Shown here: in pieces, positions 1-6,199 of the stretch
Layout of the letters: each line of letters opens with the position of its first letter
Numbering within the stretch: the stretch's first letter is position 1
Virus record (IMG/VR): IMGVR_UViG_3300035676_000002
Location: 1-64,000 of that record
DNA from: a virus
Strand: one strand, 5' to 3'
DNA length: 64,000 nt
Notes under the pieces: generated by a model
Seen by the model: the letters and a program-made list of their open reading frames with translations, nothing else
Database searches by the model: none
Told to the model about the DNA's origin: nothing
Translations under genes and position numbers: made by a program

Positions 1-142
1 GGTATTACGGCGAGGGGGGAGGGGGAAGCGGGGGGAGCGGTGGGGAGCGAGCGAGCGCCAGCGGGGAACGGCAGATTGAGCGCCACTTAATTTGAACGGC
101 AGAACTAGAGCGGAGCGGAGCGCCGGAAGGTGCACAAACGAA

Positions 143-173
143 AGCGGCAGCGGGAACCTTCCCCGCTGCCGCT
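143..173 (-). terminator. Intrinsic terminator of the leftmost minus-strand operon
   Basis: Hairpin AGCGGCAGCGGG / CCCGCTGCCGCT followed on the minus strand by TTTCGTTT, just after the stop at 201. Confidence 0.55.
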
Positions 174-200
174 CCGCTCCCGCTGGCGCTTCGCTTCCGC

Positions 201-638
201 TCACGCTTTGGGGAAGGGATTATTCCATGCCAGCAAGTGTGAAGCGCAAAGGTGCACGCTCAACCCGTAAGCGTGAGCGAGCGCAATTGAGAGCGAGCGG
301 AGCGCTTCGCTTTTGTTGCTTGTGCAATCGCAAGCCACTTCCCAAGCCCAAAGCCAGAACCTTACCACTTCAGCGGGGAGCGGCACGCTTCCCGTGGCTT
401 CCCCCAAAGCGGCAATCTCAAGCGCTCCCAAGCCAGCAAGCGGCACGCTCCCCGCTTCCGCTTTCGCTTGCACCACTTCCCGATTGAAGCGCTCCCCATT
501 GCACACTTCGCAAAGGTAAATCAGATTGCGAGCGCTCCCCTTTGCGCTCCCGCTGGAGCGCTTCACCATTGCACAGCAAACCGCTTCCGCTTGGTGACAC
601 TTGCCACACTTCCTAGGTTTGAACGTTCCCGCTTTCAT
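201..638 (-). CDS. Zn-ribbon protein (CxxC...CxxC), 145 aa
   Basis: Start moved to ATG 638 behind RBS GAAGGGA; motif CGKCHQAEAVCC...IYLCEVC. Confidence 0.7.
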   Translation of the reverse strand: MKAGTFKPRKCGKCHQAEAVCCAMVKRSSGSAKGSARNLIYLCEVCNGERFNREVVQAKAEAGSVPLAGLGALEIAALGEATGSVPLPAEVVRFWLWAWEVACDCTSNKSEALRSLSIALAHAYGLSVHLCASHLLAWNNPFPKA

Positions 639-642
639 TTGC

Positions 643-1449
643 TTAGTCCCTTCCGTACCACTTTGCGAGCGCTTCAATGTAACGCTCTTGCTCGCTTGTT
701 TCGATTGATTGCGAGCAATGATTTGCTCTCACGTATTCAATTGCTTCCCGTGCTTTCATTCCCTTAGTCACCAGAACACAAGCAAGGAAGGTTCCCGTTC
801 TGCCGTGGCTTCCGATGCAACAAACAATCACCTTCCCAGCGGGGAGCATGGAAAGCAAATCAAGCCAGAAGGCAAACCCCACAGCGGGAGCGGCGTGGTC
901 AGTCCAATTGAGCGAAAGCACGGGAACGGGAGCGAAGCAATATTGATTCAGCGCTTCAAAATTGCTCCCCTCAAGTTTGGGAGCGCTCCCCACAAAGCGA
1001 GTCACCGGCGCTTTATAGGTGCCGCTGCAATCAATCACCAAGGAAGCGCCAGCGCTCACCAAGCGCATTGCTGCCGCTCCCGCAATCGTGCCGCTCCCGT
1101 TCTGATTTTCAAAGGTCACAAGCGGAGCGCTCCCGGTATGATTGCAAGCGGGTTTATTGTGCCACGCTTGGGAATAACCGCTTCCCGTTCCCCACACTGC
1201 CGCTGCCGCTTTCTTGTTGGGCTTGTTTTCTCTGAACAAGCGGCAATTGCAATTCTCACACTCCAAATCGTTTACGTGAAACAAGCGCTTGTGTGCACAC
1301 TCGCAAACGCTTTCTAGTTCAATCCCAAAGCTAAACGCCATTGCTTCCGAAAGCGTGGCTTCAGCTTTGCCGCTTGTGGCTTCCGCTTTTGCGTTCTGAG
1401 GGGAGCGCTTCCGCTCCCCTCCCTTCCCCTTGCGCTCCCTTGTTTTCAT
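643..1449 (-). CDS. Dual-specificity/tyrosine phosphatase (PTP fold, CDKN3-like) with N-terminal Cys-rich segment
   Basis: P-loop Cx5R VCCIGSHGRTGT, WPD-like WTDHAAP, Q-loop SIETSEQ. Confidence 0.85.
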   Translation of the reverse strand: MKTRERKGKGGERKRSPQNAKAEATSGKAEATLSEAMAFSFGIELESVCECAHKRLFHVNDLECENCNCRLFRENKPNKKAAAAVWGTGSGYSQAWHNKPACNHTGSAPLVTFENQNGSGTIAGAAAMRLVSAGASLVIDCSGTYKAPVTRFVGSAPKLEGSNFEALNQYCFAPVPVLSLNWTDHAAPAVGFAFWLDLLSMLPAGKVIVCCIGSHGRTGTFLACVLVTKGMKAREAIEYVRANHCSQSIETSEQERYIEALAKWYGRD

Positions 1450-1480
1450 CGCTCCTGCCCCTTCCCAGCGCTTTTAACGC

Positions 1481-3178
1481 TTAGTTCTGAAAGAGAGCGC
1501 AAACGCTCTCTTTAATTTCTTCCACGCTTACGCTGCCGCTTCCCACTTCCACGCTCCACAAAGCGCAATCAACGGGAAGGTAAAGAGCGGCGCTCCCCGC
1601 TTTGCTGGGGAGCGTGGCAAACCCCATTGCTTCCGCTGCCGTGAGCGATGCAATCAACTCGCTTGTCACGGGAAGAGTGGCTTCCTTGTAACCGCTGTGT
1701 CCCTTTGCTGTGGCTTGAATTCTGATTTGACCGCTCCCCTCCAGCGTTCTGATTTGCAGCGTGAGAATTGCCACGGGTTTAATCTCACGCTTGAACACCT
1801 TAAGCGCTCGCTCACGCTCCCACACTTGCTCCGCTTCAGAATCAAGGATTGCGCGCAAAGTGGGAAGCAAGCCCACGATTGTTTTCGCGTTCTGGCTTGC
1901 CGCTTTGTCAAAATTGTCGGTGCTCCCAAACTTTGTGAGAAGCGCTCCCCCATTATGGGAAGTGTGCACGATAGTATTGAGCGCCTTCTTACATTCCCCC
2001 AGCGCTTTGTCTGAAGGCTGGCGCACGTAAGCGGTAATCGCGTTTGTCAAATCAATCACCGCTTTGGTGCAATTCCACCACGCCACTCCACCAAAGCCGG
2101 AACACCACTTGTGGGTAAGGAAGGTTTGCGATGCTTTGCACAAGCGGAGCGTGCTTTGCGGGAAGGTGCACAACGCTTCCTTGTAAACTTGCGAGCGTGA
2201 CAAACCGGAGCGCTTTGCGTGCCGCTCTTCCCCTAAGCACGCTGCCGTTCCCAAGCGGCAAGCCCAATTGAGCGCCACTCCCAAAATGAAAGCGCCGGAA
2301 GGGGAAGCGGGGAGCGTGATTGAGTTATGCAAGGCAAACAAAATCACCTTCAAAGCGCTGTGGAGCGCTTCAGCGTCTACCGTGAGCGGCAATCCCAAAC
2401 CACGCATAACATCCCCGTGGAAGGTGCGGGGAGCGCTCACCTTCAGCGTTTGCCCCACAGCGGGAGTGTAAGTGGTGACAAAGGGAACACCACTTGATTG
2501 AGCATGGATTGCAGCGTGGCTTGTGAGCGAAGCGGTGGGAGCGTAACAAACGCTTCCCTTGGGAAGAGTGGGAACAAGCGCTTCCCACTCCAGCGGGGAG
2601 TAAATTGAAGGGTCAATAATTTTCGTTACCTTCACCGGGGAAGGGACAAAATCGAGCACCGTTTTAACTTCCACGCCTTCCCGCAATTGCACAGCATAAG
2701 TGTGGTCTGCCGTTCCCACAACTTCAATATACGCTGCCGTTCCCTTGTCACCGCTCAAACCCGCTTGATTGCGGGGAAGGTTCCCAAGCTTGCCAGCAAG
2801 GAAAATCTTACGGGTACGCTTCCCCGCTGTGGCACCGTCTGAACCTTCCCCCAGCGCAATCAAGTTATCGCTCACGATAGCAGACCAAGTGGCGCTCACC
2901 GGATGCATAACGCACACTTCCGCTTGTTCATCCGCTGCCGTGGCTTCATTCCACAGCTTCAGCGCTTCCGCTTCGCTCCCGATGCATCGGGAATCAACAA
3001 ACCCGTGTCGGGGAGTTATGGGGCAGGGACGGCAGAAGGGGGACACTTCCCGATTGAGAAATTCCCGCACGTAAAGAATGAGAGCGCCGAAAGTTTGAGC
3101 GATGTAGAAAGTGGGAACCTTCCACGTTGCATCGGAAAGCGCTTGAATTCCCTTTGCCTTCTGTGTTCTCAACTCCAT
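1481..3178 (-). CDS. PPDK/PEP-synthase-like dikinase: ATP-grasp-like N-terminus, phosphohistidine swivel domain, unknown C-terminal domain (565 aa)
   Basis: SLTSHAAIHAQSSGVP matches the PEP-utiliser mobile-domain motif TSHAAI..R..G.P; N-terminal KAKGIQAL..ATWKVP resembles the GGKA..L......VP start of PEP/pyruvate-binding domains; start at ATG 3178 behind GAAGGGA. Confidence 0.7.
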   Translation of the reverse strand: MELRTQKAKGIQALSDATWKVPTFYIAQTFGALILYVREFLNREVSPFCRPCPITPRHGFVDSRCIGSEAEALKLWNEATAADEQAEVCVMHPVSATWSAIVSDNLIALGEGSDGATAGKRTRKIFLAGKLGNLPRNQAGLSGDKGTAAYIEVVGTADHTYAVQLREGVEVKTVLDFVPSPVKVTKIIDPSIYSPLEWEALVPTLPKGSVCYAPTASLTSHAAIHAQSSGVPFVTTYTPAVGQTLKVSAPRTFHGDVMRGLGLPLTVDAEALHSALKVILFALHNSITLPASPSGAFILGVALNWACRLGTAACLGEERHAKRSGLSRSQVYKEALCTFPQSTLRLCKASQTFLTHKWCSGFGGVAWWNCTKAVIDLTNAITAYVRQPSDKALGECKKALNTIVHTSHNGGALLTKFGSTDNFDKAASQNAKTIVGLLPTLRAILDSEAEQVWERERALKVFKREIKPVAILTLQIRTLEGSGQIRIQATAKGHSGYKEATLPVTSELIASLTAAEAMGFATLPSKAGSAALYLPVDCALWSVEVGSGSVSVEEIKESVCALFQN

Positions 3179-3182
3179 TTGC

Positions 3183-3317
3183 TTAGTCCCTTCTGGCTTT
3201 GTTGCGTTTAGGTTCTGAAGCCACTTTTGCCCCTTGTGAGCGCTGGCGCTTTGGTGGGGAGCGGCAGCGGGGAGCGCCGGAAGCGGCAAGCGGCAAGCAA
3301 TGTTCAAACGTCACCAT
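3183..3317 (-). CDS. Small basic hypothetical protein (44 aa)
   Basis: ATG behind AAGGAAG; ends in the same GAAGGGACTAAGCAAATG junction as the phosphatase gene. Confidence 0.4.
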   Translation of the reverse strand: MVTFEHCLPLAASGAPRCRSPPKRQRSQGAKVASEPKRNKARRD

Positions 3318-3988
3318 CGGCGCTTCCTTACCCGTTCCCCTTCCCCTAGGGAAGCGGAAAATTCCCACGCTCCCCGCTGAAGCGCTCTAAGCGCTTGATT
3401 TTGCTCGCTTTTCCGCTCTCAAACTAAATTTTCGCTCCCTTGATTTTGCCACGCTGAAAATCGGTAAAACGATTGATCGAACGCTAAAACAAGCCCAAAC
3501 AAGCGCCGCGGTGGTGATTTTCCCTTGCAATTCTAGCACGTTAGAGCGTGCCCCGTTTTATAACGAAAATTGAAAGTGGCTTTAATTTTGCCACTTCCAG
3601 CGGGAGCGCTCCCCATATTCAAACCCCATTTAATTTTGCGCTCCCCGCTGGCGCTCCCCGCTGGCGCTTCCGGCGCTCCCCGCTGGCGCTCCGCTCCCCA
3701 CTTCCGCTCCGCTCCCCGCTGGGATTAAACCCCACTCAATTCTCACAATTGACAAAGCGCTTTCTCAATGGTAAGAATGGCTTCCCAGCGGGGAAGCGCT
3801 GGGGAGCGTGATTTTGCCCCTTCTAATGAAGGGGAAAGCGTGATTTTCGCGTTATCAGACCTTGCCCCTTAAACGCTCACAATTGCCCCACAAGCCACGC
3901 TGAAAATCGGGAGGGGCAAGGTAAGGGGCAAGGTGCGTTTGCGCTTCCTAGGTCAATTGTGCGATTTTGCCCATATTTTAGGCAAAAG

Positions 3989-4054
3989 TTATCCACAGGC
4001 TTTTCGGTGGGTTATCCACAGGTTTTCCACAGGGGAACCGGGAAGTTATCCACA
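3989..4054 (+). promoter_or_regulatory. Cluster of four co-oriented DnaA boxes
   Basis: TTATCCACA at 3989, 4012, 4046 and TTTTCCACA at 4023, each within GTTWTCCACAGG. Confidence 0.8.
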
Positions 4055-4183
4055 GGCGGTGACGGAATTTGTTAAAGCCCAAAAGGTGACAGATTTTGTC
4101 GCTGAATTTTAAGTGGGGTTTAATCCGGCGCTTCACCGGGAATCTGACACTTTCGCCTTTTCTTCGCCCCCGGTCGCCCACCG

Positions 4184-5839: not shown

Positions 5840-6199
5840 TCACAACCAGAACGGTTCGATTCCACCGGCAAGGTAATGAATAAACCCCTCCGGCCCCTTC
5901 ATCCACTTGTGGTTAAAATCCTTCTGAGGGAACTTTGACAGCCGCTCAACCTTCTCGCCGTAAATAGTCGGCTCTGCGGTGCCGTCCTTCTCGTCGTATT
6001 GCGGATACCACCTGTCGCCGCAACAAGAACAATCCACGCCGTCGTCACAGCCGTTAAAGTACAGCCCAATGCTTTCGGCCCGTTCGTTTGCTTGCTGTGC
6101 GTTTGCTGCCTCGATAATAACCCAATGCGAAATCCCCCGCTTCTCGTCAAAGTCGAAACTTCCGCCCGTGTTATTCTGGTTAAACTCAAAAAATGCCAT
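5840..6199 (-). CDS. Conserved phage hypothetical protein (QNNxGG / DCxCCGDRW family)
   Basis: Motifs FNQNNTGGSF and GLYFNG...DCSCCGDRW that I recognise from many phage early regions. Confidence 0.8.
   Translation of the reverse strand: MAFFEFNQNNTGGSFDFDEKRGISHWVIIEAANAQQANERAESIGLYFNGCDDGVDCSCCGDRWYPQYDEKDGTAEPTIYGEKVERLSKFPQKDFNHKWMKGPEGFIHYLAGGIEPFWL

Follow-up and report, generated by a model that had tools for sequence, protein, structure and literature searches.

Dikinases that relay phosphate through a histidine on a swivelling domain, such as rifampin phosphotransferase (RPH), phosphoenolpyruvate (PEP) synthase and pyruvate phosphate dikinase (PPDK), combine an ATP-grasp domain, a conserved histidine within a T/S-H-A-A-I motif and a third domain that is modular and can be swapped, and to our knowledge none of these three enzymes has an obligate phosphatase partner. 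The only well-studied cycle known to us in which a His-swivel dikinase and a cysteine phosphatase of the dual-specificity type act on one substrate is that formed by glucan water dikinase with SEX4, LSF2 and laforin. Phages, for their part, use phosphate-adding enzymes against the host early in infection, as exemplified by T7 gp0.7 and T4 Pnkp, the latter of which also removes phosphate and heals nucleic-acid ends through its 5′ kinase and 3′ phosphatase activities. The locus described here lies in a stretch of 64,000 nucleotides (the window), which covers positions 1 to 64,000 of the 112,442-bp virus record IMGVR_UViG_3300035676_000002 in IMG/VR; the same record encodes a helicase, a ribonucleotide reductase, an SbcCD-like nuclease and virion proteins. 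It consists of a dikinase-like gene, P0001, followed by a gene, P0002, for a phosphatase of the protein tyrosine phosphatase (PTP) superfamily. On balance, we consider it somewhat probable that a three-part phage module for phosphoryl transfer of the dikinase type is present here in compact, fused form, with the phosphatase working in the same pathway.

Two minus-strand open reading frames (ORFs) fill positions 643-3178 of the window, and the features of the pair are as follows.

643 to 1449, minus strand: P0002 gene, cysteine PTP of 268 aa (stop included; coding 646-1449), from the ORF and its translation
1481 to 3178, minus strand: P0001 gene, dikinase-like, 565 aa (stop included; coding 1484-3178), from the ORF and its translation
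2654 to 3178, minus strand: predicted compact ATP-grasp nucleotide-binding domain, P0001 residues 1-175, from the model and structure search
2420 to 2653, minus strand: putative phosphohistidine swivel domain, P0001 residues 176-253, from its motif; His221 codon at 2516-2518
1799 to 2419, minus strand: helical third domain, P0001 residues 254-460, from the model; presumed acceptor-binding or catalytic domain
1484 to 1798, minus strand: variable C-terminal alpha/beta tail, P0001 residues 461-565, modelled as three strands, a helix, three strands and a helix

The ORF of P0001 spans 1481-3307 and would give 608 aa if counted from an upstream TTG; the start adopted is the ATG at 3178, preceded by a Shine-Dalgarno-like site (GAAGGGA). 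P0002 starts at the ATG at 1449, 31 nt beyond the P0001 stop. Both genes stand where the first-pass annotation had placed them, and they are real genes rather than chance ORFs, because homologues reach an E-value of 1e-178 and the pair recurs in ~50 independent phage contigs.

The pairing of the two genes is obligate. A scan of IMG/VR returned 49 loci with a relative of P0001, and the GenBank phages added four Manatee Spring podovirus records; by tblastn, 49 of 50 phage loci have a relative of P0002 next to the kinase gene, the lone exception (L029) ending 4 nt beyond the kinase match. When the ORFs of 51 loci were clustered, the kinase and phosphatase clusters were each found in 48 loci and the next cluster in only 6; no third conserved neighbour exists across the 51 loci, and neither a ligase nor a nuclease is conserved nearby. 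Both ORFs were called in 47 loci, in 43 of which the PTP follows the kinase on the same strand; the two genes overlap by 4 nt in 10 of the loci and are more than 100 nt apart in only five. The association extends to bacteria, where a scan of 185,579 species genomes found four loci, in a Chloroflexi metagenome-assembled genome (MAG), a Salinarimonas MAG, Acidobacteriaceae bacterium TAA 166 and an Acidobacteriales MAG, with the phosphatase adjacent in all four; the context in one isolate, made up of unknown genes and one PHROG match, is consistent with a mobile element. The co-occurrence of homologues, which the first-pass annotation had named as a check, is therefore borne out by the neighbourhood survey (49/50 phage loci, 4/4 bacterial loci). 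Variation in arrangement was seen in the 108,596-bp contig IMGVR_UViG_3300005077_000007 (loci L005 and L027), which carries two kinase homologues ~9 kb apart; at the second of them, the usual single downstream phosphatase gene is replaced by two on the other strand.

P0001 belongs to a family of 98 homologues (E-values from 1e-178 to 3e-20), all metagenomic, 485-1,176 aa in length and mostly covering only ~75% of the query, not one of which carries a precomputed Pfam domain. Conservation was judged on an alignment of 52 homologues at 24-54% identity and on a second set of 68 further representatives at ≤50% identity. Invariant in the 52 are Q6, K7, R50-P51-C52-P53, P56, G59-F60, S63, E87, T117, E152, Q164, R166, H221, G316-E317, G363-G364, W367 and H408-N409, and most of these positions recur in the 68. 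The motifs RPCPxxPRHGFVDSR and TSHAAIH, which had been singled out from the letters at first reading, are real and rank among the most conserved positions of the 52-homologue family; within the second, H225 is conserved in at least 90% of sequences while the positions other than H221 and H225 vary, the family consensus being LASHAAIH.

An AlphaFold2 model built on the 52-homologue alignment reached a predicted local distance difference test score (pLDDT) of 91.8 and confirms, at the level of predicted structure, the ATP-grasp-like start that had been proposed: residues 1-175 match RPH (5hv1_A) with a VIA-align Z of 12.0 over 163 aligned residues (root-mean-square deviation 3.2, 15% identity), tied for best with carbamoyl phosphate synthetase at 12.0, whereas PPDK (1vbg) scores 7.4. 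Foldseek gives a probability of 1.00 to many ATP-grasp enzymes, with RPH 5fbs at an E-value of 3.1e-4. At 175 residues, this domain is about half the size usual in His-swivel dikinases, and neither Pfam nor NCBIfam detects it, in contrast to its counterparts in those enzymes. Searches of PDB sequences with P0001, single-sequence and profile alike, returned nothing even at an E-value of 10, and PHROGs, NCBIfam and PADLOC gave no match for the protein.

The region that follows, residues 176-253, is likely a swivel domain, judging from its motif and its setting. H221 is invariant in the 52 and the 68 sequences, and in the model the region forms a small alpha/beta unit (strand, loop, histidine, helix, GxP, strand) with H221 at the start of the helix and G-V-P after it. 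The sole Pfam match of P0001 is a sub-threshold one to PEP-utilizers (E 0.014, residues 217-238), and in both copies of the gene found in the record (the second is described below) PF00391 falls on the His motif, with per-genome E-values of 2.9e-4 and 9.3e-4, though its 15.4-17.6 bits stay below the cut-off of 23.1. Profile comparison with hhalign places residues 197-249 of the family on residues 400-454 of E. coli PpsA (E 0.013), pairing EWE with DWE, TSHAAI...GVP with TCHAAI...GIP and H221 with the histidine of the GGRTCHAAI motif; against four PPDK-like proteins of cultured phages the His motif alone aligns (E 0.036), and E. coli PtsI gave a match to the family at chance level only. Of the phosphohistidine swivel put forward in the first-pass annotation, the conserved motif and its invariant histidine thus stand; the fold is putative, the structure searches having never reached so small a domain.

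The C-terminal half had been described as an unrecognised domain standing in place of the pyruvate-binding barrel, and this description holds: it comprises a helical bundle and a small alpha/beta tail, and neither P0001 nor any of 120 relatives has a match to PEP-utilizers_C in Pfam. In the models, which include a second one restricted to residues 176-565 (pLDDT 89.3), residues 254-460 form an all-helical bundle, in which E317, R319, R328, G363-G364, W367, H408, N409 and K416 are invariant and H320 is conserved in at least 90% of sequences. Foldseek of the 176-565 model against the PDB gave no match at E≤1e-3, and VIA searches with it returned generic helical bundles only (Z≤7.4), with no convincing solved counterpart and with RPH absent from the top 50 matches. 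A profile of the helical domain alone (43 sequences) matches 2,631 clusters (50% identity) at E≤1e-3, of which 1,089 reach E≤1e-10 and 662 reach E≤1e-30; among the best 150 matches, the domain lies ~250-770 residues from the N-terminus. The family is therefore large, with at least 2,600 such clusters, and almost entirely unannotated. Clusters labelled 'Rph_4th' (PF27448), often together with PEP-utilizers, were proposed by a language model as look-alikes of the domain (scores 0.83-0.85), which serves as a lead only. P0001 does not match NF041857 at E≤0.1, and a search of three bacterial genomes with the RPH model found only a short grasp-plus-swivel protein. As for additional domains, two long family members, P0140 (1,066 aa) and P0245 (992 aa), carry an N-terminal hexapeptide-repeat region (a left-handed beta-helix, acyl- or nucleotidyl-transferase-like) before the dikinase core; a scan for fusions among long kinases, long phosphatases, the 68 representatives and the longer length class yielded zinc ribbons and these two hexapeptide-repeat N-termini only.

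The second protein of the pair, P0002, is a predicted cysteine phosphatase of the PTP superfamily that has its full catalytic equipment and a variable N-terminus. A Cys-rich, zinc-ribbon-like cluster at residues ~48-70 precedes the PTP core at ~100-262, in which the CX5R P-loop reads C211-I-G-S-H-G-R217-T (Cys211 codon at 817-819). Although P0002 itself scores 26.6 bits against the PTP-SAK cut-off of 27, several partner homologues clear the cut-offs of PF22784 (PTP-SAK) or PF00102 (Y_phosphatase), for example with 43.6 bits against 27. Across 24 partners, C102, D184, P188, W195, C211, G216, R217, G219, E250, Q254 and Y257 are invariant and W182 of the WxD acid loop is conserved in at least 90%. 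The partner profile matches RPTP epsilon with an E-value of 1.9e-14, and also RPTP alpha, SsoPTP, DUSP23 and PRL; the WPD loop, P-loop and Q-loop align with those of RPTP epsilon and alpha, which makes D184 the presumptive acid and places E250 and Q254 on the Q-loop. With this match and its invariant catalytic residues, the PTP-fold phosphatase that had been read directly after the dikinase gene is confirmed.

Relatives of the pair are found in cultured siphophages, where the same parts occur as separate genes. Searching with P0002 (tblastn, 1e-7) recovered the Stenotrophomonas phages Summit, DLP5 and DLP3, the Rhizobium phages RHph_Y1_11 and TM16, the Rhodobacter phage RcZahn and Vibrio phages. 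In the four records in which the gene order was read (Summit, RcZahn, RHph_Y1_11 and vB_VhaS-a), a gene labelled 'pyruvate phosphate dikinase' is followed by small ORFs, a PTP, a hypothetical protein of 338-478 aa, a second PTP, further hypothetical proteins and the DNA polymerase; the second PTP is a relative of P0002 in three of the four. The so-called PPDK carries PPDK_N (1.5e-42) and PEP-utilizers (7.4e-25) domains without the barrel, and matches only the short PPDK model NF004531, over its N-terminal domains. The profile of the helical domain finds the hypothetical protein between the PTPs, namely gp145 of Summit (hhalign probability 97.4, E 9.1e-12) and EVC30_142 of RHph_Y1_11 (probability 96.9, E 1.8e-10), with E-x-R-H, GYGG-x-x-W and AHNNG-x-x-x-NK aligned in both; compared with the C-terminal 200 residues of the cultured-phage PPDK-like proteins, by contrast, it finds nothing. 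The clusters of Summit, DLP3, DLP5, RcZahn, RHph_Y1_11 and the Vibrio phages vB_VhaS-a, Virtus and J26 thus hold a dikinase core, a helical domain and a homologous PTP, as the window does. They differ in having a recognisable PPDK_N plus PEP-utilizers core, a separate helical protein and two PTPs, where the window has one very divergent fusion and a single PTP.

By these alignments, P0001 appears to be a natural fusion of a dikinase core with the helical domain, and the window pair the fused, compact form of the three-part module. Domains encoded separately in cultured phages and fused here would, by the Rosetta-stone argument, work together, so that the helical domain would function with a His-swivel dikinase core and residues 1-253 of P0001 would be the divergent equivalent of that core; this equivalence is also the strongest argument for the swivel. 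The suggestion of a known swivel architecture put to fresh use with a new acceptor domain gains strength in this way, since the helical domain is a gene of its own within the same dikinase/phosphatase cluster. Checked against the outcomes that the first-pass annotation had named as fatal to its proposal (no ATP-grasp or swivel fold, a PEP-synthase C-terminus, no co-occurrence), the finding survived each check. Several labels in these phages look wrong: besides 'pyruvate phosphate dikinase' on a protein with no barrel, there is 'putative membrane protein' on the helical-domain protein (Summit 85515-90922) and 'thymidylate synthase' on the second PTP of DLP3 (MT110073) and DLP5 (MG189906/NC_042082), the last having passed into PHROG 17568. 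The literature searched holds genome descriptions only, with no functional work on the module in fused or split form.

Set against the systems described at the outset, the individual parts (a cysteine PTP, and an ATP-grasp joined to a swivel His) are of familiar types, whereas for the helical acceptor domain, for the obligate pairing and for the occurrence in phages the literature searched offers no characterised parallel. P0001 resembles RPH, PEP synthase and PPDK in its ATP-grasp (RPH being the joint-best match), in the conserved histidine placed after it and in its exchangeable third domain; the order differs, however, being grasp, swivel, acceptor in P0001 and grasp, acceptor, swivel in RPH, and the presumed acceptor domain is a helical bundle lacking a convincing solved match. 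Glucan water dikinase lacks a helical third domain, and nothing ties the window pair or its relatives to glucan: Pfam scans of P0001, P0002, 120 kinase relatives and 10 long phosphatase partners found no carbohydrate-binding module families (such as CBM45, CBM48 or CBM20). The phage enzymes are built differently, T4 Pnkp from a P-loop kinase and a haloacid dehalogenase (HAD) phosphatase and gp0.7 as a Hanks-type-like kinase, neither with a swivel histidine or a PTP; what the window offers in place of the Pnkp-type features is an ATP-grasp and a cysteine PTP, with no ligase conserved nearby.

The analysis establishes the domain layout, the conservation of the catalytic residues, the obligate pairing and the match to the split module of cultured phages; the chemistry, the direction in which phosphate flows, a substrate common to both enzymes and any role against the host or its defences are inferred. 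If the pair is indeed a fused phosphoryl-transfer module, its working may be pictured as follows. The ATP-grasp domain would bind ATP, and His221, on its small mobile domain, would take up phosphate by way of a pyrophosphoryl-His intermediate with release of AMP and Pi, by analogy with PPDK, PEP synthase and RPH. His221 would then carry the phosphate to the helical domain, whose cluster of Glu, Arg, His, Asn and Lys residues would bind the acceptor and catalyse the transfer. The co-transcribed and often translationally coupled PTP would act in the same pathway and, most simply, would hydrolyse the phosphoester made by P0001, erasing what the kinase writes; in that event both enzymes would share one substrate. 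The acceptor should be common to many bacterial phyla. The nucleotide signal, DNA end or defence protein named as targets at first reading are guesses.

Several results weigh against this picture. A kinase and a phosphatase acting on one substrate amount to a futile cycle unless they are separated by time, place or specificity. The case for the swivel consists of motif and context, with Pfam below cut-off, profile E-values of 0.013-0.036 and structure searches dominated by the other domains. At the sequence level, the ATP-grasp half shows no link to PPDK_N, either in Pfam or in profile comparisons with the PPDK-like proteins of cultured phages. Finally, neither domain fusions nor fold matches yield any clue to the substrate.

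In one alternative, the two enzymes would take successive steps, with the PTP trimming a pyrophosphorylated product to a monophosphate or removing a blocking phosphate and thereby freeing another site of that molecule for the kinase, as in end healing by T4 Pnkp. Such a two-step pathway, which we regard as unlikely, fits the strict co-occurrence and the translational coupling better than an antagonistic pair does; His-swivel dikinases such as PPDK and PEP synthase are known to pass through pyrophosphoryl-His, and the two different PTPs of the cultured-phage cluster suggest more than one dephosphorylation step. However, PTPs with a WPD loop and a Q-loop typically hydrolyse phosphomonoesters on proteins or small molecules, neither a ligase nor a nuclease is conserved nearby, and the Pfam scans detected no nucleic-acid-binding domain.

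The position of the cultured-phage cluster just upstream of the DNA polymerase gene raises another option, in which the enzyme phosphorylates a base or nucleotide as an activating step towards modified phage DNA. The resistance of DLP3 DNA to 15 of 15 restriction enzymes (PMC7326821) and the cutting of DLP5 DNA by only 4 of 36 (PMC5834331) count in its favour. Nevertheless, the window pair lies apart from the replication genes of its phage, and only two genes are conserved across ~50 very different phages, complete genomes of 40-50 kb included, all of which renders this explanation improbable. Its hydroxymethyl-pyrimidine form (DNA hypermodification) was rejected, since just 2 of the 44 cassette-bearing records have hydroxymethylases of the thymidylate-synthase type, and the cultured phages have none, including Summit, which belongs to the same genus as DLP3 and DLP5.

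Alternatively, the PTP could regulate or reset the dikinase itself. It would act either on a stalled phospho-enzyme or on the Thr/Ser beside His221, in the way that PDRP and PSRP control PPDK and PEP synthase. T219-S220 do precede His221 much like the Thr-Ser-His that is regulated in PPDK, the two genes are closely coupled, and kinase and PTP have diverged in step (55% and 49%) between the two versions in the record. Yet the residues before the histidine vary within the family (consensus LASH), the module has no protein kinase for the Thr, and co-divergence is expected of any linked genes, so that we consider a regulatory PTP decidedly improbable. It is more doubtful still that the pair forms a phosphorelay, in which His~P would pass to the PTP cysteine as a phospho-carrier to the final acceptor. 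There is a precedent in the sugar phosphotransferase system, as Enzyme I uses the same swivel-His domain and EIIB carries phospho-cysteine on a phosphatase-like fold, and the obligate pairing would suit it; in a carrier, however, the residues that favour the hydrolysis of Cys-phosphate should have been lost, and the invariant Asp184 and Gln254 argue for hydrolysis rather than for a carrier role. An ordinary metabolic PPDK interconverting pyruvate and PEP as an auxiliary metabolic gene, the label used in GenBank and in several genome papers (PMC12038007; PMC9229204), is scarcely credible, being contradicted by the missing PEP/pyruvate barrel in P0001 and the cultured-phage proteins alike, by a third domain that is helical and by a PTP with no role in PPDK chemistry.

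As to the purpose of the fused phosphoryl-transfer module, we tentatively entertain, as a possibility with less than an even chance, that it is a new phage counter-host system, in which the helical domain would be a phospho-acceptor catalytic fold not seen before, a conserved bacterial molecule would be phosphorylated at the cost of two ATP phosphoanhydride bonds, and the PTP would either keep the reaction within bounds or bring it to completion. Candidates for that molecule are immune signals, nucleotide cofactors, envelope precursors and the side chains of proteins (such as Arg, His or Tyr). Identifying the acceptor would extend the His-swivel dikinases by a new class of substrate and, probably, by a new catalytic domain, and could uncover a new means by which phages commandeer or disable their hosts; since Stenotrophomonas, Vibrio, Rhodobacter and Rhizobium all have cultured phages with the split form, the function is directly testable. 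At the least, a recurrent mis-annotation would be corrected ('PPDK', 'thymidylate synthase' for a PTP, and the label of PHROG 17568).

The record also carries the pair in a second version, at 109,871-111,502 on the minus strand and likewise with the phosphatase downstream, whose kinase is ~55% and whose phosphatase is 49% identical to those of the window. The last 4.09 kb of the record (108352-112442) is collinear with window positions 1-4091, and its final 157 nt are 95.5% identical to 3935-4091; proteins of this version B are 96% and 90% identical to proteins from other samples, a range of 96-99.6% being given as well. From this layout, the assembly probably went once round a circular or terminally redundant genome of ~108.35 kb and into a variant of the same locus, in which case the two versions would be population alleles and not tandem copies; the alternative is a real, diverged terminal repeat. 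Were the counter-host interpretation true, two ~55%-identical versions between 95%-identical flanks in one phage population would be the signature of a phage-host arms race. Because the record is probably a circle-wrapping assembly, the 'leading' genome end on which the first-pass annotation had placed the pair is not established. Among direct-terminal-repeat records, the pair lies within ~7 kb of an end in 6 of 12, as judged by eye and with contig ends that may be arbitrary; this is at most suggestive of action at the start of infection, an idea drawn from position.

Upstream of the pair, one candidate promoter was noted.

3739 to 3768, minus strand: candidate sigma-70-like promoter upstream of the pair, TTGAGA, 18-nt spacer, TG-GAGAAT (9/12 matches)

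This candidate is a consensus match only, 3 such sites having been found against 1.6 expected. The GC content of the first 4 kb is 0.55-0.56, compared with 0.42-0.50 in the remainder of the window, and peaks of 0.63 (window 1-500) and 0.75 (record 108,443-108,942) each mark the downstream boundary of one version of the cassette. A possible small gene of 145 aa (window 201-638, minus strand) begins 4 nt after the P0002 stop; it encodes two CxxC pairs (zinc-ribbon-like), its C-terminal half is made of local repeated DNA words, and its upstream context encodes the same residues as that of the P0001 gene (EGTKQ, then M). Since this ORF is not conserved in version B or in the ~50 related loci, it may not be a real gene. 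Further upstream of the pair, an ORF of 119 aa (5840-6199, minus strand) accounts for the sole nucleotide similarity to GenBank phages in the first 8 kb (~70%, window 6037-6198), its matches being hypothetical genes of the Streptomyces phages Endor2, Sitrop and phiScoe.

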